Assembly: GCA_039927695.1 (NCBI GenBank)
Contig: JBDSUM010000020.1
Span: 1-63,800, forward strand
DNA length: 63,800 nucleotides
Direction: 5' to 3'
Source of the DNA: Minisyncoccota bacterium
Lineage (GTDB): Bacteria > Patescibacteriota > Minisyncoccia > Phycocordibacterales > Phycocordibacteraceae
Part shown: positions 53,972 through 63,391 of the stretch, piece after piece
How positions within the stretch are numbered: the first letter of the stretch is position 1
How the letters are laid out: each line of letters opens with the position of its first letter
Translations under genes and position numbers: made by a program
Notes under the pieces: generated by a model
Databases searched by the model: none
What the model saw: the letters and a program-made list of their open reading frames with translations, nothing else
What the model was told of the DNA's origin: nothing

Positions 53972-54198
53972 ACTGATTCACTATGAATAATACTCAGCGC
54001 TAACTATAATTTAGATGAAAGAGACTGTGCCTGAAAGACACTTACTCTATATATGCGCCTACTCAGGTCAATTAATGCGAGCAGTCGTGGGTGTGCGGCG
54101 GATTAAAATAACTTTGAGCGAATATGAACGAATAGAGACAGGCGGCCTATATAAAATGAGTAGTACTTAGAGTCGGTAAAATATTATAAATTACCCCT

Positions 54199-54645
54199 TT
54201 AGTTAGGCTGTTGTATATGGAAATATAGTATTTTCCATATACCACCTTCTTTAAGTAGTCTTATATCAATATCAGCTGAACCTTTCTCGAAATCAGCTTT
54301 GGCCACATATTCGGCAGATATCGTTTGTTTTCCATTATTTATATGAATACCTGACTCACCAGTGGAGCCATTATATTTCTTCATTGAACCAAGACCATCG
54401 CGTGCAGAAGCTATGAAAGCATTTGCTTGATCTTTGTTCATTATTACCAATAACTCAGGACTACTGTGATCAATAAGCTCATTTGAGTTCCAGTTTGAAA
54501 CAATCTTAGGCACTTCGTTATCTACCCACGCTTTACTTTCTTTATCATAAGCAGTTCCTTTAATGCTGGCATAGATGAAAAATGAAATGATAGCCAAAAT
54601 TAGAACTATACACGCTATTCCTAATCCTATTAAAATCCTCTTCAT
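54199..54645 (-). CDS. Membrane-anchored hypothetical protein
   Basis: 148 aa. An N-terminal TM, then a soluble domain of about 115 aa. AT-rich; third gene downstream of the giant toxin gene. Confidence 0.5.
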   Translation of the reverse strand: MKRILIGLGIACIVLILAIISFFIYASIKGTAYDKESKAWVDNEVPKIVSNWNSNELIDHSSPELLVIMNKDQANAFIASARDGLGSMKKYNGSTGESGIHINNGKQTISAEYVAKADFEKGSADIDIRLLKEGGIWKILYFHIQQPN

Positions 54646-54673
54646 AAATTAATAGACATTGTTTAAGGTTGCT

Positions 54674-54892
54674 CTAAAAATAAAAGAGAAACGCTCCAAG
54701 AATAAAGACTAGACTAAATATAAGAATAAACCCCTCGAATGTAGAGAAGGCTCTTTCTGCGGCAATCGAACTGAGACCGAACTTTGAGAAATATCCAACC
54801 CCTCTTTTGTTAAAGTCTTTGTTTTTATCGACAGATAATAACCATCCTATTAGGACTAGCGCTAGTAGAGCAAAGATGGCTGGTATATACAT
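54674..54892 (-). CDS. Hypothetical two-TM protein (candidate immunity paralogue)
   Basis: 72 aa with TM-loop-TM topology. Second gene downstream of the giant toxin gene. Confidence 0.5.
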   Translation of the reverse strand: MYIPAIFALLALVLIGWLLSVDKNKDFNKRGVGYFSKFGLSSIAAERAFSTFEGFILIFSLVFILGAFLFYF

Positions 54893-54984
54893 AGTTTTAT
54901 TATTTATAATTCTTATCTTTTTTCTGTTGTTGAGTAAGTTGCGTTAGGTTAGAGACAACAGGTCATGAGGGTGAAATAGATAAT

Positions 54985-55236
54985 CTAGCGAAAAAGCCAA
55001 TTATAGCCAAGAAATATAAAGATGATGCCTACGCAAAGAAAATAAGGTGTTATTTGAGCTAATAAATTCTTTGCAGATTCACTAGGATTGGAAGATTTTT
55101 TAAAGAAACGAGCTGCTGACCAAACTATGAAATTATAATTGCCTATCCAGTTTGTATAAATTACAAATATTAACAGAAGTATCCCTAAGAGAAATACCGG
55201 AACAGAAACTATATATTCGTTAATTAATGTATTCAT
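54985..55236 (-). CDS. Hypothetical two/three-TM protein (candidate cognate immunity)
   Basis: 83 aa. It starts 4 nt after the stop of the giant RHS-type gene. Confidence 0.55.
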   Translation of the reverse strand: MNTLINEYIVSVPVFLLGILLLIFVIYTNWIGNYNFIVWSAARFFKKSSNPSESAKNLLAQITPYFLCVGIIFIFLGYNWLFR

Positions 55237-55240
55237 GAGT

Positions 55241-58200
55241 CTATTTAGAATTAGTTTTCTTGAAGTCTTTACTATTAGAAGTCTGAGTTCTATTTGCTAC
55301 ATTTTTTATAAGGTTAACCTCTGCAGTAAATAAACTGACAACATCAGTCATTCCTCCTACTTTCTCACCAGCGAGTGCAGGAATTGTATTATATGCAGCT
55401 GTAACAGCAGCTTTTGCCCTGACATATGGATCTTTTGACTTCAGCCCTGAAGAGACTATGTCAATAGTGTTAGGGATATTCCTAAGAGCTTCATAAGTCA
55501 AGTATGAATAACCTGCTGTTTGCAGAGCTCTTCCTGCAAGGAATGATGTGCCTGCACTTAGATTAGTCGTTGTTACTGCTGCAACAGAACTCATACCGGC
55601 CTCAGCGACTGGTACTGACAATACACCCACTCCCATTCCCGCGACAATTGGATGACTTAATGCCGTTCCCCATGTTGAATTTACTTGTGGTAAATAAGTT
55701 GCGGCGCTATTAATTTCATTCCCAAAACTTGAGAACGACTGCTGGCCACTGAGTAATTCTCCATACCAGAGCCCTGTAGGATCTGATTTTGTGATTGGAT
55801 TGTCTCGAGCGTATGAATATGAGTTTAGACTCTGAGGATCTGAGAGGACTGTAGCCTGATCTATACCGGCAAGACTCTTCAATTTCTGTGGATCGCCAAT
55901 TGCGAGGAATGTAGGGTCCTCTGACAAGAACTGCCCTCTCGCAGGATCCTGATACCGTGCATTCAAATAATTGAGTCCCGTACTTCCGTCATACTGCTGC
56001 CCTATGTATTTACGCTGCTCAAGTGGCGAACCAGTATCAATTCGTAACGCTCCATACGGATAGTAGTCTGTGGTTTCGTTTAGGTGCCCGAGTGAATTGC
56101 TGGTGACATTCGTTGAGCCCAGATTGTCTGCATGGAGGTACGTGTAGGTCTGTGTAGATGAAGAGAGTTGGTACGTAGCAACAGGGTTACCTTGCGTATC
56201 GTAGATATGGTCTGTAGTGGTTGTTCCGCTGATGTTGTACAGATTGTTTGGGTTGCTGGTGGTGACTCCTCCAATCACCGTCTTTATTCGTTGTGAGAGG
56301 TAGTCATAGAAATTAGTGGTCGTAGTGCTACCCGTTACACTACCTGTCATTCGATTCTTATAGTCCCACTGATAGGTTGTAGTGCCGTAGTTAGTTAGGT
56401 TTCCATTGTTGTCGTACGTTAACGCTGTGGCACCAATAGTGGTAGGTGCGTGTGGGTTCGCATACCCTGTTCCAGCGTAGGTGTAGTTACCTACGTCAGA
56501 CTTATTTGTGAAGTTACCCAGAAGGTCATATGTGTACGATTGCGAGAATGGTAAGGTGCTGGCCGCAGTGGTGGATGCGTTTAGGAGTCTGTTGAGACTG
56601 TCGTATGTAAATCGTTCAACCTTTCCGGCAGTGGTACCAGAAAGATCATTTATCTGAAGAATGTTTCCATTATTGTCATATGTGTAGAAAATATCTTGCA
56701 GGTCTGCTGTCGCAAGCCCTGAAGCAATTCCAAAAGTAGCAGTGGTTGTACTCCATGCTCCTACGGAATCTTCGCTATTCCAAAAACGGATACGCCAGTC
56801 GTAGGCACTTCCCGAAATCAACGTTTGACCACTATAGGTAACGGGCTGTATTTGTATCCCACTCGGAGTGCTACTCGCCAACGTCTGCTTTAAAGAATCC
56901 CACGTGGGGGCAATCCATCCTGCTCCAGAATTTGTTACTTGGATTTCATAACTCGACGCAGTATCTGTAGCAATGGTGTTGTTATAGGTTGCAGTGAAAG
57001 TTGGTGTCGTACTTGATAGCGACATTGGACTCGTGGTTCCATTTACTAAGAGATTTGTTGGCGCGCTTGGGTTGTACCAAGGCGCAATACTGAATGATGC
57101 TGTTTCTGTACTCCAAACGCTTGGGCTATTGAATGAATCCCAAAACCGTATTCGCCAGTAGTACGGTGTAGACGCGCTCATGGGAGAACCGCCGTATATA
57201 ATATCTGGCGAACGTGCACCATTCGTAGTAGATGCTGTTATTGCATGCTGTGAACTGTCCCAGAAAGGATTTGTCCAAATTGTAGAGGATGTAGAAATTT
57301 GAAGCTGGTAATTTGTTGCGTAGTCTCCTACGTCTGCATCACTAAACAGAGCAGAAAATGATGGGGTGTGATTTCCCAGAGTTGTTGGATTTGCCTGACC
57401 CTCTGTAAGAAGGGTGTTTGGCGTACCCGGAGCTAACGAATAGGTAATTACAAGTTGTGGCGCGGTACTTACACCTGATTCTGCAGAAGCCCAGTTTGTG
57501 TCGTAGGTAGTTGAAGCTGTGGGAGCGATATTATACATATCGTTATACGTCTTTACACCAAAATGAGATATTCCCGCATTTGTAATTTGAGCTATTCCTG
57601 CAGGAGTTAAGTTAATTTGGTTATATGCATTTGTGATATACGTACCAGACGACGAGCCCACAGCAATATTTCCTAGGGTCGCGTAATCATTTAGATATAC
57701 ACGATCGTCGTGATAAGGAGCTGCCGTAGTTATAAATACTCTATTCTCCGAACCTGATTGAGTATGAATCGTGATATAGAGGTTGATACTTGCACTTGAA
57801 ATGACGGCTCTGCTATCTAGTGATGTTGCATTAAAGCCTATAAGTGCTCGGGTAATCCCGTAAAAGTCTGGTCCGTACCCTGTACCATATTTAGCGTTAA
57901 CTCCTTCATGAGTACTTAAGTAATCATAATTATTTGAAGCCGGATAATCCCATTCAGAAAACCAGTCAGTAAAATTATCTAGGTACATATTTCCATCAGC
58001 ACCATACGCTCCCTCGCCCGCGCCTGGATAAAATGTTGCTCCCGTTGCCAAGGCTCTCTGTGGTACAAAGAAACTAATCAATGCATCGATAAAACTCTTT
58101 GGGGCGGGCTTCATTTGCGCATCAAATGCTGTTGGGGTTGTGACCGCATATGATGCAAGCCACCAACTGCCATCAGTATCTTTGTAGTAGCTTGGTTCAC

Positions 58201-61200
58201 CCGAATTTATCTCTGCAACAAATACTTGTGGATTATTGGTTGCGAATGTTCTGGTCGTAGCAGTTCGCTTTCCCACAACTTCACTGCCTAGAATAACTCC
58301 ATCTTTACGAGCTTCTTTGAGGGTTCCATCACTCGCTGGAAGATTATCGACCGATATGTTTGTTCGGTACGCGTATTTGATTAATCCTTCTTTAAGTAAA
58401 ATTTCGCCTAGAATACTTACCCGCGGAGCTTTCAACGCTAGCTCGGGAGAATTATCTGGAAGCATCTTAAGTTCATCGGCAAAAGTGCGTTGAAACTTTT
58501 GTGTAGTACTCGCTGTGAATCCTGACTGAGTAGTAGTGGCAAGCAAAATGGTACTTGCATCAGGCAGATTAAGTGTTGGAATAATCTTTGGGAGACTTTG
58601 TTCTGCGCTTGAAGTTGTTGCAGTAGTAGTTGACGCTATCGAACCGTCAGTGGTAGAAGCTGAGACATCAGGCACATCTTTTTTGTCTTTACTACTTTGC
58701 ATGGAAGTAGATGCGTCGACTTTAGGTACGTCAGGCTGAGTTGCTGGTGTGGTTGAGTCTGCTGAGGCCGCTGGGTAAAAAGTAGGCTGATATGTTGGAT
58801 CATCGTTGAATGCCAAGATTATCTTTTTGTTTATATCTTTGAAGCTTAGTAGTGACGATGTTGCAGTCTGTGTAGTTGCTGGTGATCGGCTTTCAGTAGT
58901 TGTTGCAGACATTGCAGGAGTAACCATTAACGTACCGAAACCTGAAGAAGAGACTGTCTGTATGCGAGATAGCCGGTAAAGATGTGCTGCATCGTAGGTA
59001 TTTGTAGTTGTAACTCCGTTTCCAAATTGCTTGTAGGCTATTTGACTAGTGGGAGAATAATTAAAATTGGTAACAATACCTGTATATGTATTTGCACCAG
59101 ATGGCTTTTGACTTATGGATTCAAGTAATCCTGCGTTGTTATAGGTATAAAGCACCTGAGAATTATCAGGATACGTAATACTTGTGGTATTTCCGAGACG
59201 ATCAAATGCCCTGAAAGTAGAATAATTTACTCCTCCTATAGCCTCCTTCTCTTGAACGGTGTTTCCCGAAATATCATAAGCGTATGATGTTGTGGCGGTA
59301 GAAGTTGCTACAGTTGCAGAGCAAAGGTGACCGATACCAAATGCACATGAATCATAGACATAGGTCGTCTCAATTCCCGTGAGTCCAGAATAATCTTCAG
59401 TAAGGGGACGATTTAATAGATCATATGTGTAATTTATTACTTGATTCTTAGGATCAGTCTGCTGTGTCAGATTACCCGTATCATCGTACACAGAATTCCA
59501 AGCACCATAGGATGAATCCGCGGTGGGATGTAAATCCTCAGCTCGTAAGCGTCTACCTAAGAGATCGTAGTTAAAGTTACGTACGTTTCCAGCCGCATCA
59601 ATGATTTTAGTTAGATAATTATTACCGTTATAGACGTATTGAGTTGTCCCAGAGAGAGAACCTGGATGCTCTATAATGCTCGATAGATTTCCGTATGCAT
59701 CTTTGTAAGCATCTTTAACATTATTATTTGGATCAATTGTTGTTACATGCCACGGACTATATGAATTTATTGTTGAACCTACGGAATTAGTAATTCGAAG
59801 AGGACGTTGTAACGGGTCATAAGCATATGTTGTTAAGAGAGACGTTGAGGGCGGTAACGTGACTCCTGTATACGAGGTCCCAGATCCAAAATAAGGAAGA
59901 GATTGCGAGGAAAGTAATCCGACACCGTTATAGTACGAATCCTTTACAGCATAGGTACTTGTTCCTTCAGCTTGCGCTCGTGACTCTACTTCCCTGCCAT
60001 AACCGTCCTTATAAAGATATGTATGTACACTAGAAGTTGCATTGAGATAATCTATTTGATGTGTAAGTCGAGGCATTCCTGTGTCTGTATATATAAATTC
60101 CGTGCTCGTAGACAGGGTAGAGGTCGCAATAGGATCTGGCTTTAATACTCCAATTAAACGATTGAGGAGGTCGTACGTATTCTTTTTTACAAATCCATTT
60201 GGATCAGTCGTTCTAGTAGGCTGGCCGTTGTAATAGTTATATAGAAAGGCCGTGCTTTGTGAAAAAGAGTTAGTTACTTTTGCTGGATACAGATTGTATG
60301 TATCATATACATATGTAGTTGTTGCGGAACGAGGATTTATTTCTTGCGTAACAAGACCGAACGAATTATAGACTTTTCGTATTGATTGAATAAACGTACT
60401 TGATGCTGTCTTTAAGTCATCTTGTTCCGTCATGTTTCCTTTCGCGATTGAACCAAGACCGAGTCCGTCATAGAGGTATCGAGTATCACCAAGTAAGGCA
60501 TTATTCTGATCAAGTGTTATTTTTTCAGATACCTTACTAAAAGGTAGAGTCGTGCTCGCAGCGTAGCTAAGATTTGTAATGCGCTCGTCGGTGCCTATAT
60601 CTGTAAAAGAACCATCGTCTCCTAAAGCTGAAACTTCACCCCATGATATTTTCTGTAACAGATCTCCCGTAGTGGTACTGTATGAGGATTCTTCTGCTAC
60701 TACTTTAGGGGTCGAGCCTCCGTCGTAATCATAGGACGTGGTGCGTATCGGCCATATAAAATTAGCTAAGCCACGAATCACATTATCCCATTTTGTTATA
60801 AGTACTTTAAAAAGTGTTGTTGCAGAATTATAGTTTTCTACACGATATACCTTTCCGATTTTTGATTGAGTATCAAGATATTCACCAGTACTCGTAGCAC
60901 TACCATTTCCAGTGTGGAAATACGAAGTACTCTTATTTCCTACTGCATCAGTCTTTGTAATGCTTCCGAAGCCGCCGGAACGTCTGTCTGTAGAGCTTCC
61001 AAAGTAAAGGGTTCCATCTTTGTATTGATACGACTCTGTTGAAGTAGCAGCTACGCCATCATATGTCTGAATTTTTTGTACTGCGGGAAAGAATGATGCG
61101 AGTTTTGGATTCAGGAGATTATTGTTACTATCTCGAAATTTACTCGTAGATTGATATGTTGGGGTAATTTGTTTGCCACCTGATTCTGTCACGTGATTGA

Positions 61201-63391
61201 GGAGATCGGCCGCGTCGCCCAATGCAAATTGAATTCCTCCGTAATTATAAATACTTATAAAACTACTAACCATTAAATCACTCAGTCCATTGCCACTTAT
61301 ATTTCCCGTTCGTGGACCAACATCCCCATAGCTATCCGGATTGGATATAAAGTATGGAAGAGGTATGAATCTTGAGGGGTCATATTTCCAACCGGAACCT
61401 GTATTAAGATATGAGAAATTAGTAGTCCAGGAGAAACTTGCCGGATTATTGGTGTACGGTAAATATCCTACGGCTGAAGAAACATCAGGCAAGCCATCGC
61501 CATTGAGATCTGAAATTATCATTCCCGGCTGTTGGGCTTGAAGTGAGCCAGGGAGAATCCATGTTGGATCATTGGTCCATCCATGTCCATTGTTTATATA
61601 AGCCTGATTCTGAACACCATAATTTCCATCCATCCCTTGCAAGATATCAGCAAGACCATCGCCATTTATATCCGCCAAAACTCCGCCGCCCGCTCTTCCT
61701 GTATCATTGGTAAATATAACCGGCAGTCCATTTGGATCAATTGGGATGTTCCATGAGTAATTACGAGCCCATCCGGAACCAGTATTTAAATACACTTGCT
61801 GGGTATATAAAAAGGAGGAATTTGATGGAACGAACTTTCTGTCTGAATACACCAAATCCACTAACCCATCCCCGTTTATGTCACCAAACCTAACTCCCAT
61901 ATCTGTATATTTACCTAAGGCAGAATCAAGGTAATTCATACTAACAGGTGTATCCCAAGTGGAGCTTGCCATCCAATTCGTACCAGTATTTATAAATACA
62001 CTATTAGTACATATAAAATCTGGGAGTCCATCTCCATTAACGTCCACCAATCTTCCTCCTCCGTCATCTGTATAGTGCGGTTCGACAATGAAATTACAAG
62101 GCGGGTTAAATGTTGGTGAATAACTTGTTGACCATCCGGAACCAGTATTTAAATACACTCCCCTTGAGACTGAATATCCTAGATTTTCATACGATTGGAC
62201 CAGGTCTGCAAGACCATCTCCATTAACATCTGCCATGGATATACCTCTATCTGTACCATTTTCTACAAAATTACCGGCAGGATTACTCCACGTACTCGTA
62301 GCCATGGCTGACGTAGAAGTTGAGTAGTTGAAGGTAGTTGGTGGAAGCGCAAGAGTAGTAGAAGCATTCTTTCCTATCTCAGTTATATTCTTTAGTAGTG
62401 TTCTAACAGAGTTATCACCGGCACCATATCCAAGCGTGTAACTTTTCGTTGTTGAGCCATTTATTTGTATGTCGATTTGATTCACCTGATATCTGGTCTT
62501 TACAGGAAAGCCTGCGGCCGAAGATGTAGCCGTGGACGTTGCCAGCAAGCCAAGAGTAAAATTTATTGCAAACGGGGGTGTCGACGTTGAAGTATTATTA
62601 GCACTATAGGTGATTGATGAGGGGTATATTTGACCCAAATCTTTTGAGTAAGTATAGGTAATACTGTTACCGTTTGTATCTATCTGCTTCTGGAGATACC
62701 ACCTGAATATTTTCGTACTTGTCGTGTCATCTTGCCGACTTTGAGGGGCGAGACCAAATCTATAAATCGTACCCGCCTTATCGACGGCAGTCCAAGCATT
62801 ATTGCCAAAACTGTATTGCATATTGGATCCATCATCATTTCTTGCAACAAACATTGCACTTGTACTTGTGGCAGTAAGCTCTCCTGACACTGATGAATAA
62901 AAAAATGTTGAAAGAGTCGTGGTTGAATATAAGTCATCAAGACCAGTTTTGTTATATCTCTGAATATACGGAATCGAGAGTCCCCATCCATATCCAAATC
63001 CGGTATCAGAATGATCGTTTGAAGAATATGACAGCATAAGATCAGGAGTCATTCCTGATCTTCCTGGAGGTATTGAAAATGTAAACTGGTATGCAAATGT
63101 ACCAGGCTGACTGCCCCTGCTAGGATCAATGACGTTTCCCGTACTTACAGCTTCTTTACTGCTTATAGGTATTGGTTGAGTACCGCCGCCGCCAGCTGAC
63201 ATAGGACTCAGGGTGGAAGCTTTTGATGCGGTTACAGAAGGGCTCTTAGCTGTAGCCACTTTTGTAGGCGCAGGAGCAATTGAGGCTGCGAAGCTGAAAA
63301 GTGGTGCGCTTAAAAGAAAAAAGAGGGCTAGAAAGACCACCTCTTTTTTAAAAGTGGAGAGAGCGCACACCATCCGGTGAGTGTTCCTCAT
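55241..63391 (-). CDS. Giant secreted RHS/YD-repeat polymorphic toxin with a Tc-toxin TcB/TcC-like fused architecture
   Basis: 2716 aa. Signal peptide; SpvB-type N-domain (FTFSIPPGRSGMTPDLMLSYSS); six DxNGDGxxD FG-GAP/VCBS blades; YD repeats; RHS core ending DPTGL; a 175-aa C-terminal domain. Confidence 0.9.
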   Translation of the reverse strand: MRNTHRMVCALSTFKKEVVFLALFFLLSAPLFSFAASIAPAPTKVATAKSPSVTASKASTLSPMSAGGGGTQPIPISSKEAVSTGNVIDPSRGSQPGTFAYQFTFSIPPGRSGMTPDLMLSYSSNDHSDTGFGYGWGLSIPYIQRYNKTGLDDLYSTTTLSTFFYSSVSGELTATSTSAMFVARNDDGSNMQYSFGNNAWTAVDKAGTIYRFGLAPQSRQDDTTSTKIFRWYLQKQIDTNGNSITYTYSKDLGQIYPSSITYSANNTSTSTPPFAINFTLGLLATSTATSSAAGFPVKTRYQVNQIDIQINGSTTKSYTLGYGAGDNSVRTLLKNITEIGKNASTTLALPPTTFNYSTSTSAMATSTWSNPAGNFVENGTDRGISMADVNGDGLADLVQSYENLGYSVSRGVYLNTGSGWSTSYSPTFNPPCNFIVEPHYTDDGGGRLVDVNGDGLPDFICTNSVFINTGTNWMASSTWDTPVSMNYLDSALGKYTDMGVRFGDINGDGLVDLVYSDRKFVPSNSSFLYTQQVYLNTGSGWARNYSWNIPIDPNGLPVIFTNDTGRAGGGVLADINGDGLADILQGMDGNYGVQNQAYINNGHGWTNDPTWILPGSLQAQQPGMIISDLNGDGLPDVSSAVGYLPYTNNPASFSWTTNFSYLNTGSGWKYDPSRFIPLPYFISNPDSYGDVGPRTGNISGNGLSDLMVSSFISIYNYGGIQFALGDAADLLNHVTESGGKQITPTYQSTSKFRDSNNNLLNPKLASFFPAVQKIQTYDGVAATSTESYQYKDGTLYFGSSTDRRSGGFGSITKTDAVGNKSTSYFHTGNGSATSTGEYLDTQSKIGKVYRVENYNSATTLFKVLITKWDNVIRGLANFIWPIRTTSYDYDGGSTPKVVAEESSYSTTTGDLLQKISWGEVSALGDDGSFTDIGTDERITNLSYAASTTLPFSKVSEKITLDQNNALLGDTRYLYDGLGLGSIAKGNMTEQDDLKTASSTFIQSIRKVYNSFGLVTQEINPRSATTTYVYDTYNLYPAKVTNSFSQSTAFLYNYYNGQPTRTTDPNGFVKKNTYDLLNRLIGVLKPDPIATSTLSTSTEFIYTDTGMPRLTHQIDYLNATSSVHTYLYKDGYGREVESRAQAEGTSTYAVKDSYYNGVGLLSSQSLPYFGSGTSYTGVTLPPSTSLLTTYAYDPLQRPLRITNSVGSTINSYSPWHVTTIDPNNNVKDAYKDAYGNLSSIIEHPGSLSGTTQYVYNGNNYLTKIIDAAGNVRNFNYDLLGRRLRAEDLHPTADSSYGAWNSVYDDTGNLTQQTDPKNQVINYTYDLLNRPLTEDYSGLTGIETTYVYDSCAFGIGHLCSATVATSTATTSYAYDISGNTVQEKEAIGGVNYSTFRAFDRLGNTTSITYPDNSQVLYTYNNAGLLESISQKPSGANTYTGIVTNFNYSPTSQIAYKQFGNGVTTTNTYDAAHLYRLSRIQTVSSSGFGTLMVTPAMSATTTESRSPATTQTATSSLLSFKDINKKIILAFNDDPTYQPTFYPAASADSTTPATQPDVPKVDASTSMQSSKDKKDVPDVSASTTDGSIASTTTATTSSAEQSLPKIIPTLNLPDASTILLATTTQSGFTASTTQKFQRTFADELKMLPDNSPELALKAPRVSILGEILLKEGLIKYAYRTNISVDNLPASDGTLKEARKDGVILGSEVVGKRTATTRTFATNNPQVFVAEINSGEPSYYKDTDGSWWLASYAVTTPTAFDAQMKPAPKSFIDALISFFVPQRALATGATFYPGAGEGAYGADGNMYLDNFTDWFSEWDYPASNNYDYLSTHEGVNAKYGTGYGPDFYGITRALIGFNATSLDSRAVISSASINLYITIHTQSGSENRVFITTAAPYHDDRVYLNDYATLGNIAVGSSSGTYITNAYNQINLTPAGIAQITNAGISHFGVKTYNDMYNIAPTASTTYDTNWASAESGVSTAPQLVITYSLAPGTPNTLLTEGQANPTTLGNHTPSFSALFSDADVGDYATNYQLQISTSSTIWTNPFWDSSQHAITASTTNGARSPDIIYGGSPMSASTPYYWRIRFWDSFNSPSVWSTETASFSIAPWYNPSAPTNLLVNGTTSPMSLSSTTPTFTATYNNTIATDTASSYEIQVTNSGAGWIAPTWDSLKQTLASSTPSGIQIQPVTYSGQTLISGSAYDWRIRFWNSEDSVGAWSTTTATFGIASGLATADLQDIFYTYDNNGNILQINDLSGTTAGKVERFTYDSLNRLLNASTTAASTLPFSQSYTYDLLGNFTNKSDVGNYTYAGTGYANPHAPTTIGATALTYDNNGNLTNYGTTTYQWDYKNRMTGSVTGSTTTTNFYDYLSQRIKTVIGGVTTSNPNNLYNISGTTTTDHIYDTQGNPVATYQLSSSTQTYTYLHADNLGSTNVTSNSLGHLNETTDYYPYGALRIDTGSPLEQRKYIGQQYDGSTGLNYLNARYQDPARGQFLSEDPTFLAIGDPQKLKSLAGIDQATVLSDPQSLNSYSYARDNPITKSDPTGLWYGELLSGQQSFSSFGNEINSAATYLPQVNSTWGTALSHPIVAGMGVGVLSVPVAEAGMSSVAAVTTTNLSAGTSFLAGRALQTAGYSYLTYEALRNIPNTIDIVSSGLKSKDPYVRAKAAVTAAYNTIPALAGEKVGGMTDVVSLFTAEVNLIKNVANRTQTSNSKDFKKTNSK
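55244..55768 (-). other. C-terminal cargo (toxin) domain, 175 aa, of unrecognised family
   Basis: It lies after DPTGL. Gly/Ala-rich hydrophobic stretches (HPIVAGMGVGVLSVPVAEAGMSSVAAV). No nuclease, deaminase or ART motif was recognised. Confidence 0.6.
55769..56699 (-). other. RHS/YD-repeat block 2 with the RHS core, ending at the DPTGL motif (aa ~2231-2541)
   Basis: DIFYTYDNNGNIL, FTYDSLNRLL, YTYDLLGNF, LTYDNNGNL, YYPYGALR, RKYIGQQYDGSTGLNYLNARYQDPARGQFLSEDP, and DPTGL at 55769-55783. Confidence 0.85.
56700..58949 (-). other. Non-RHS module of about 750 aa inserted between the RHS blocks
   Basis: An S/T-rich linker, an unknown domain, a DNRLRE-like beta-sandwich (TRALIGFNATSLDSRAVISSASINLYI), and two tandem ~119-aa FN3-like repeats ending YWRIRFWDS..WS and DWRIRFWNS..WS. 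Confidence 0.65.
58950..61204 (-). other. RHS/YD-repeat block 1 (aa ~730-1481)
   Basis: Many YxYDxxGNL/RL-type repeats (YVYDTYNLYP, NTYDLLNRLIG, FNYDLLGRRL, YTYDLLNRPL, YAYDISGN, YTYNNAGLL). Confidence 0.85.
61232..62254 (-). other. FG-GAP/VCBS beta-propeller region (aa ~380-720)
   Basis: DVNGDGLADL, DVNGDGLPDF, DINGDGLVDL, DINGDGLADI, DLNGDGLPDV and NISGNGLSDL. Most are followed about 20 aa later by YLNTGSGW-type motifs, with a 60-65 aa period. Confidence 0.8.
62342..63139 (-). other. SpvB/TcB N-terminal-like domain of the giant protein (aa ~85-350)
   Basis: PPGRSGMTPDLMLSYSS, GFGYGWGLSIP and WYLQKQIDTNGNSITYTY blocks. Confidence 0.7.

Follow-up and report, generated by a model that had tools for sequence, protein, structure and literature searches.

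What could the C-terminal tip of a secreted RHS protein do if nothing in it is recognisable as a toxin? The question is raised by a 63,800-nucleotide (nt) stretch of DNA from a Minisyncoccota bacterium (GenBank assembly GCA_039927695.1, contig JBDSUM010000020.1, positions 1 to 63,800 of the forward strand; hereafter, the window). Its minus strand encodes a secreted RHS protein of 2716 amino acids (aa) at 55241..63391, as read from the translation of the open reading frame (ORF) and from Pfam and NCBIfam matches. The RHS core of this carrier (Rhs_assc_core, TIGR03696 in NCBIfam; aa 2443-2541, 55769..56065, minus strand) covers the model completely (positions 1-76/76, 50.4 bits against a cutoff of 32.5) and ends in NPITKSDPTGL, which reads as the PxxxxDPxGL autoproteolysis motif. 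The profile match stops exactly at DPTGL (nt 55769-55783, aa 2537-2541), after which a tip of 175 aa remains (55244-55768, minus strand), as an earlier note made from the letters alone had placed it. That note suggested that the tip may be a membrane-depolarising effector reminiscent of glycine-zipper or helical-hairpin pore formers, with small membrane proteins encoded downstream as immunity factors. Our analysis retains part of this proposal: we put at roughly 0.55 the probability that the tip is a membrane-inserting, probably pore-forming toxin that is neutralised inside the membrane by a protein with two transmembrane (TM) helices. Action in the membrane together with neutralisation there stands at 0.55-0.6, and pore formation specifically is held with lower confidence.

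The tip matches nothing significantly in Pfam, NCBIfam, PHROGs, PADLOC or PDB sequences. Its best Pfam match, SLATT_1 (E 0.078, 13.5 bits against a cutoff of 26.3), was treated as compositional, and neither the Colicin pore-domain profile nor any glycine-zipper family in Pfam was matched. The earlier statement that it belongs to no recognised toxin family therefore stands for these libraries, but the tip does have relatives. When 1.84 billion representative proteins were searched exhaustively with phmmer, 53 matched at E<=1e-3, 13 of them at E<=1e-10. We excluded P0004 (786 aa, eight identical repeats of ~97 aa, E 2e-18 to tip aa 94-161): it lacks an RHS core, and its match, which inflates the list, is probably an artefact of assembly, repeats or a coiled coil. 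In 45 of the 51 tips kept, D-[PE]-x-G-x-W stands directly before the matched region; the remaining tips come from gene calls truncated at the 5' end or differ in a few residues after DPxG. None of the 51 lies outside an RHS context. By these comparisons the tip is a member of a rare, recurrent, RHS-restricted family that is absent from curated libraries: none of 28 family members matched any Pfam family at E<0.02, and a family profile found no match among PDB sequences. A word-indexed homologue search gave no match for the tip itself and only four short fragments for the family alignment, which was not deepened. The tip contains one His and no Cys, and HNH and deaminase-type sites are therefore excluded by composition alone; with no curated family or known enzymatic fold matched, the earlier observation that no known nuclease or deaminase-type motif is present is confirmed.

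All 51 aligned tips share aa 1 to ~73 and diverge afterwards, into about 32 class I tips (including that of the window), 11 class II tips and 8 with other tails. On this alignment the tip is bipartite. Module A (tip aa 1-~73; 55550..55768, minus strand), delimited by the alignment and an AlphaFold2 (AF2) model, follows the pattern W[YF]xEFLTGQQSWxSF..E[VL]GxA...L....W..A..HP...G...G across the 51 tips and then runs as a Gly/Ala-rich, uncharged stretch to G71-V-G73. Amphipathic helices (aa 2-38) lead in it to a hydrophobic helix of 27 aa (aa 40-66; 55571-55651, minus strand; from AF2 and hydropathy), described as uncharged. Module B (aa ~74-165; 55274..55549, minus strand), which is specific to class I and again defined by alignment and AF2, is a charge-poor helical segment with the pattern PGVG..Y.A......Y..L....L..IP...P...GE..G...D, and it is the putative membrane-acting toxin part of the tip. 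A polar, Ser/Asn/Lys-rich tail (aa 166-175; 55244..55273, minus strand), variable in the family, closes the protein.

Two hydrophobic stretches had been singled out in the earlier note. The first, ALSHPIVAGMGVGVLSVPVAEAGMSSVAAVTTT, falls within module A and is real: Kyte-Doolittle (KD) means over 19 aa peak at 1.63 across tip aa 36-60, and the stretch is conserved in the family. The second, AKAAVTAAYNTIPALAGEKVGG, falls within module B and is only mildly hydrophobic. Across the 28 class I sequences, the fraction of charged residues stays at <=0.12 from aa 31 to aa 150, and KD averages 1.0-1.4 between aa 41 and aa 90. Hydrophobicity is even around helix 40-66 (hydrophobic moment 0.10), and helices 12-29 and 92-109 are significantly amphipathic relative to shuffled sequences. 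The glycine-zipper element of the proposal was rejected, as its periodicity does not rise above shuffles: the tip contains 7 small-xxx-small pairs against 8.2 +/- 1.8 in shuffles, and the only GxxxG conserved in the family is G44/G48. An AF2 model built on the 28-sequence class I alignment is all-helical (helices 2-7, 12-29, 31-38, 40-66, 74-109, 114-133 and 137-169), and Foldseek with this model against PDB found nothing better than E 0.29, among generic helical bundles at chance level.

The genes next to the tip also bear on the case for membrane action. An ORF that begins 4 nt after the toxin stop codon encodes an 83-aa protein with two strong TM segments (54985..55236, minus strand; called from ORF, TM prediction and homology). 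Related loci were retrieved with a nine-sequence alignment of module A, and eight further class I loci were fetched (P0003, P0010, P0014, P0016, P0024, P0034, P0048 and L016, from Lloydbacteria). In all nine class I loci, the window included, the ORF directly after the tip encodes a homologous two-TM protein of 71-91 aa, whereas none of five loci with other tips has one (Fisher p 0.0005). There, the next gene encodes DUF2283 (L014/L015, E 5.2e-16), Imm26 (L022), a soluble 96-aa product (L004), a soluble 106-aa product (L012) or an unrelated 194-aa polytopic protein (L024). Furthermore, similarity among the two-TM proteins tracks similarity in module B (Mantel r 0.36, p 0.026) and not in module A (r 0.12, p 0.20). 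The survey of tip and immunity co-variation that the earlier note had proposed thus favours, indirectly, a membrane-active effector with a two-TM partner; the first hydrophobic stretch quoted there does not do so by itself, since it lies in module A.

Three ORFs with TM segments adjoin the tip, of 83, 72 and 148 aa, and the downstream membrane proteins had been suggested as immunity factors; only the first is likely to be cognate. The 72-aa protein (54674..54892, minus strand; ORF, TM prediction and homology) likewise has two TM helices and belongs to the same superfamily. The 83-aa protein is homologous to the partners of P0003 (34% identity, E 3e-8) and P0016 (32%, E 6e-7) and to the products of the next genes of the P0048 and L016 tips, and the 72-aa protein resembles the partner of P0034 (48%, E 2e-20), whereas the tips of the window and P0034 share only ~26% identity. 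Partners of the 83-type thus accompany the tips of the window, P0003, P0016, P0048 and L016, and partners of the 72-type those of P0010, P0014, P0024 and P0034, with the P0010 partner bridging both groups; the Mantel correlation weakens when the 72-aa protein takes the place of the 83-aa protein as the window's partner. Given these two coupled subtypes, the 83-aa gene is likely the cognate immunity gene, and the 72-aa gene is likely an additional or orphan, stockpiled immunity gene against a sister toxin subtype. The third product, an N-terminally anchored 148-aa protein with one TM segment (54199..54645, minus strand; ORF and TM prediction), matches no family and has no homologue in the other fetched loci. 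We rejected it as part of an immunity array, there being no counterpart in any other locus, and it is doubtful whether it belongs to the cassette at all. Over the three small membrane-protein genes (window 54150-55350), GC content drops to 0.29-0.36, against 0.45-0.47 in the RHS gene and tip. We rejected this drop as a signal of horizontal transfer: it does not extend beyond these genes, and their amino-acid composition may be all that it reflects.

The topology of the 83-aa protein suggests where neutralisation would occur. The K/R-rich loop between its TM helices is predicted by the positive-inside rule to be cytoplasmic, and its termini are only a few residues long, so that almost nothing would be exposed outside the cell with the loop in that orientation. 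Such an arrangement points to neutralisation within the bilayer or at its inner face. In the mechanism that we propose, the RHS core would cleave after DPTGL, as expected from the motif and from Tse5 (PMC9637101), and a tip of ~19 kDa would exit the cocoon at the target membrane. It would insert into the target's cytoplasmic membrane via helix 40-66 together with the helices of module B, and a pore or leak formed by both modules would dissipate the membrane potential; in the producer and its kin, the 83-aa two-TM protein would neutralise the toxin inside the bilayer.

Several points weigh against this proposal. Only a single segment of the tip (aa 40-66) comes near the hydrophobicity of a TM helix; its KD peaks at 1.63, and E56 and P53 lie within it. 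This most hydrophobic element sits in module A, which also accompanies nucleases that act in the cytoplasm; belonging to a module common to RNase and DNase tips, it is therefore not by itself evidence of an ionophore. The tip has no detectable homology to the C-terminal tip of Tse5 (Tse5-CT), to colicin pore domains or to SLATT, and the co-variation rests on 9 pairs with p~0.03. The profile and structure searches suggested earlier revealed no enzymatic toxin fold, but the AF2 model of the tip is of low confidence (predicted local distance difference test (pLDDT) 64, predicted template modelling score 0.39), so that the missing fold match is weak evidence. Finally, a membrane-embedded immunity protein would also fit a toxin that attacks a lipid-linked substrate.

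That last point leads to the best of the alternatives, which we nevertheless regard as unlikely: that module B is a membrane-associated enzyme of Lipocone or colicin M type acting on lipid head groups or on lipid-linked (for example, undecaprenyl-linked) cell-wall precursors, with the two-TM protein blocking it at or in the membrane. The Lipocone superfamily, which includes tips of RHS and other polymorphic toxins, does contain helical, partly hydrophobic tips paired with TM or lipoprotein immunity proteins (PMC12419801), and a few polar positions are conserved in our family: E18, Q10, S11, H39 (His or Asn), Y87 and D142 (82%). Most of these, however, lie in module A, which nuclease tips have in common, and in module B only Y87 and D142 stand out. 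The only invariant residues of the family are W33, P40 and Y87, and H39 is replaced by Asn in several members; module B has almost no invariant polar residue and lacks the conserved polar constellation of Lipocone tips. None of the 28 members matched Pfam, and neither the PDB profile search nor Foldseek recovered the folds of TelC, SAA, Wnt or VanZ-like proteins, a weak test in view of the low model confidence. Moreover, the candidate immunity proteins have nearly no extracytoplasmic residues, whereas known Lipocone immunity acts in the periplasm or at the membrane surface.

A second alternative starts from module A, which occurs in front of other toxin domains. Class II tips consist of module A, then GTACxxxCG, then unrelated domains. 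The tail of P0032 matches Tox-REase-7 (E 2.3e-16), that of P0037 matches DUF4258 above the cutoff (25.7 bits), and that of P0033 matches DUF4258 more weakly. In an AF2 model of the class II tip of L014, from a Patescibacteria metagenome-assembled genome (MAG), the toxin domain (aa 92-196) is predicted with pLDDT ~90, and its best fold matches are the CdiA-CT(NC101) tRNase, colicin E5 and RelE/HigB (weak E-values, probability up to 0.97), all of them BECR-type RNases. Residues 39-91 of module A in the same model have pLDDT <50 and do not pack on the toxin domain. It was also observed that G-T-x-C-x3-C-G closes class II module A just before the variable toxin domain (for example, L014:2815-3591 and L004:1171-1713), with C77 and C81 invariant in 10 class II sequences and no Cys there in class I tips. 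At L024:3333-3917 (P0054), another module A tip has a Gly/Ala/Ser-rich tail and is followed by the 194-aa protein, with 3-4 TM helices; P0054 may represent a second type of membrane-acting tip with its own membrane immunity protein.

Because the same RHS clade places module A before RNase and DNase domains, the most likely role of module A is to bring whatever comes after it into the membrane or into the cell, and its hydrophobic stretch may be the entry or insertion device. Module A could even be an autonomous device that, once released from the Sec-exported cocoon, puts its hydrophobic helix into the target membrane and carries cargo to the cytoplasm without a type VI secretion system (T6SS), a type VII secretion system or TcA, class I tips having evolved from it when the cargo gave way to pore-making helices, but we offer this extension only tentatively. 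In the second alternative, module B is itself cargo, namely a soluble cytoplasmic toxin of unrecognised fold that module A ferries across the membrane, with the two-TM proteins blocking entry rather than binding a pore. A role in entry is plausible given that module A precedes bona fide cytoplasmic nucleases, and the helices of module B are amphipathic and not strongly hydrophobic. However, soluble and not two-TM immunity genes accompany the nuclease tips that share module A, co-variation links the two-TM proteins to module B but not to module A, and module B has few charges and next to no invariant polar residues; we consider a soluble toxin slightly more improbable than a lipid-directed enzyme. 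Patescibacteria are regarded in the literature as largely episymbiotic, and the genome is small (831 kb), the named carriers of the family are all Patescibacteria MAGs and the Sec-exported carrier shows no T6SS-type domains in Pfam, but a channel or anchor that an episymbiont inserts in its host's membrane for metabolites or attachment, with the two-TM proteins stopping self-insertion, is the least probable alternative by our estimate, given the hallmarks of polymorphic toxins (a conserved shell whose tip varies, orphan cassettes of tip and immunity gene, a surplus immunity gene and a scattered distribution) and one member on a 5.3-Mb contig, hence not in a small-genome symbiont.

Our preferred reading of a pore-forming membrane toxin has a functional precedent. 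Tse5-CT, the tip of an Rhs T6SS effector of P. aeruginosa, comprises 149 aa after DPxGL with no predicted enzymatic activity and with TM and amphipathic helices; the pores that it forms prefer cations, cells are depolarised by it, and two TM helices are predicted in the immunity protein, Tsi5 (PMC9637101). The window shares this layout: a tip of ~150-175 aa directly after the RHS DPxGL, without enzymatic motif and with predicted TM or amphipathic helices, is encoded alongside a small two-TM candidate immunity protein. Unlike Tse5-CT, the window's tip is bipartite, with a module A common to nuclease tips, and no similarity in sequence or fold was found between the two tips by phmmer, family profile or Foldseek against PDB; the Tse5 structure 8cp6, present in the PDB library searched, was matched by the RHS shell part only. 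The carriers also differ, as that of the window has a Sec signal followed by SpvB and FG-GAP, and PAAR was not matched in it. Since the purified Tse5 shell alone can deliver its tip to model bilayers (PMC10684867), a route without an injection machine is conceivable for the tip of the window.

For module A, the closest analogy is the CdiA-CT architecture. CdiA-CT tips combine an N-terminal cytoplasm-entry domain with an interchangeable C-terminal nuclease, including BECR/RelE-like RNases. Both systems thus pair a conserved N-terminal sub-domain with swappable C-terminal toxins, and the best fold match of the class II model is CdiA-CT NC101 itself. Module A differs in that it follows an RHS core rather than VENN, contains a hydrophobic helix rather than a soluble receptor-binding domain and has no detectable homology, and its role in entry is putative.

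The carrier itself resembles the TcB/TcC (BC) component of Tc toxins. It begins with a typical signal peptide and continues with an SpvB N-domain, an FG-GAP propeller, an RHS/YD shell, the RHS core and the toxin tip (Pfam: SpvB 1.3e-14, FG-GAP_3 4e-12, RHS_repeat 1.7e-20, with FG-GAP also matched); from this order, the carrier is predicted to be a Sec-exported, fused TcB/TcC-like RHS cocoon protein. In common with BC it has SpvB, the FG-GAP propeller, the RHS shell, the core aspartyl-protease motif and an encapsulated, variable C-terminal cargo, here in one fused chain, and relatives also match TcdB_toxin_midN. It differs in a shell insert of ~750 aa that carries two Ig_Rha78A_N domains (Pfam), in the lack of an adjoining TcA-type partner and in its cargo, a hydrophobic helical peptide with a candidate immunity gene beside it, which indicates inter-bacterial use. 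The gene upstream of the carrier is YceG-like, and no large gene adjoins. The TcA_TcB_BD profile (PF18276) was unmatched in the genome, with control genomes equally silent; PAAR gave no Pfam match in the carrier, T6SS genes not having been searched for in the genome. The source assembly comprises 831 kb in 39 contigs, with an estimated completeness of 91%. A second RHS protein in the same genome (locus L019, G000 contig C7:10524-10787, open frame of 2031 aa) has a tip unrelated to that of the window, without module A and with a long Ser/Thr/Asn-rich tail at its end.

The family is rare and scattered. The tip occurs in none of the 60 closest relatives and in 2 of 401 genomes sampled across the phylum, and RHS cores of any kind are sporadic (2 of the 25 genomes from the genus); the RHS proteins of relatives carry unrelated tips, so that the tip varies on related shells. 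P0003 is an orphan cassette of core fragment, tip and immunity gene downstream of a 2780-aa RHS protein. All named genomes with the tip module are Patescibacteria MAGs (Ca. Saccharibacteria, Kaiserbacteria, Lloydbacteria and 'Patescibacteria group'). P0016, a class I member (L008; ENA ERZ25074452 ctg12157), lies on a 5.3-Mb contig by a phage-type integrase and has two two-TM genes downstream, and P0010, P0014 and P0034 adjoin serine recombinases; mobility of the family follows from this, as does its occurrence outside tiny genomes, and these settings suggest carriage on integrative elements and transfer beyond small-genome bacteria. At L016, an orphan RHS-core fragment (L016:5407-5868) is similar through DPSGLWYKEFITGQQSWPS, after which all similarity is lost; recombination may have broken the sequence here, within the conserved start of module A. 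Near this fragment is a gene for an IS200/RAYT-like transposase, as there is in L004.

Membrane-toxin tips of RHS proteins that are paired with a two-TM immunity protein are already known as a functional kind. Three things appear to be new: a sequence family that none of four curated libraries contains, its presence on TcB/TcC-like proteins that Patescibacteria export through Sec, and a shared pre-toxin module A joined either to nucleases or to module B. Full-text searches of the literature on RHS toxins in Patescibacteria and Saccharibacteria did not turn up the family, which is no proof of absence. Should the tip turn out to be no more than a pore former like Tse5, it would add a new sequence family of a known functional kind.

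To our knowledge, almost nothing has been established experimentally on how the ultra-small Patescibacteria (Candidate Phyla Radiation) attack or manipulate other cells. The window offers a compact candidate toxin-immunity pair from this group, a 175-aa tip and an 83-aa two-TM protein. It also belongs to a natural experiment, in which module A stands either before nucleases with soluble immunity or before a helical segment with putative in-membrane immunity. The entry of Sec-exported RHS/WapA-type toxins into the cytoplasm is, as far as we know, an open question; if module A is an entry element, it would explain how RHS cargo released outside the cell reaches the cytoplasm without an injection apparatus. 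Were module A an autonomous device, as we tentatively suggest, Patescibacteria would have in it a new and self-contained module for protein translocation.

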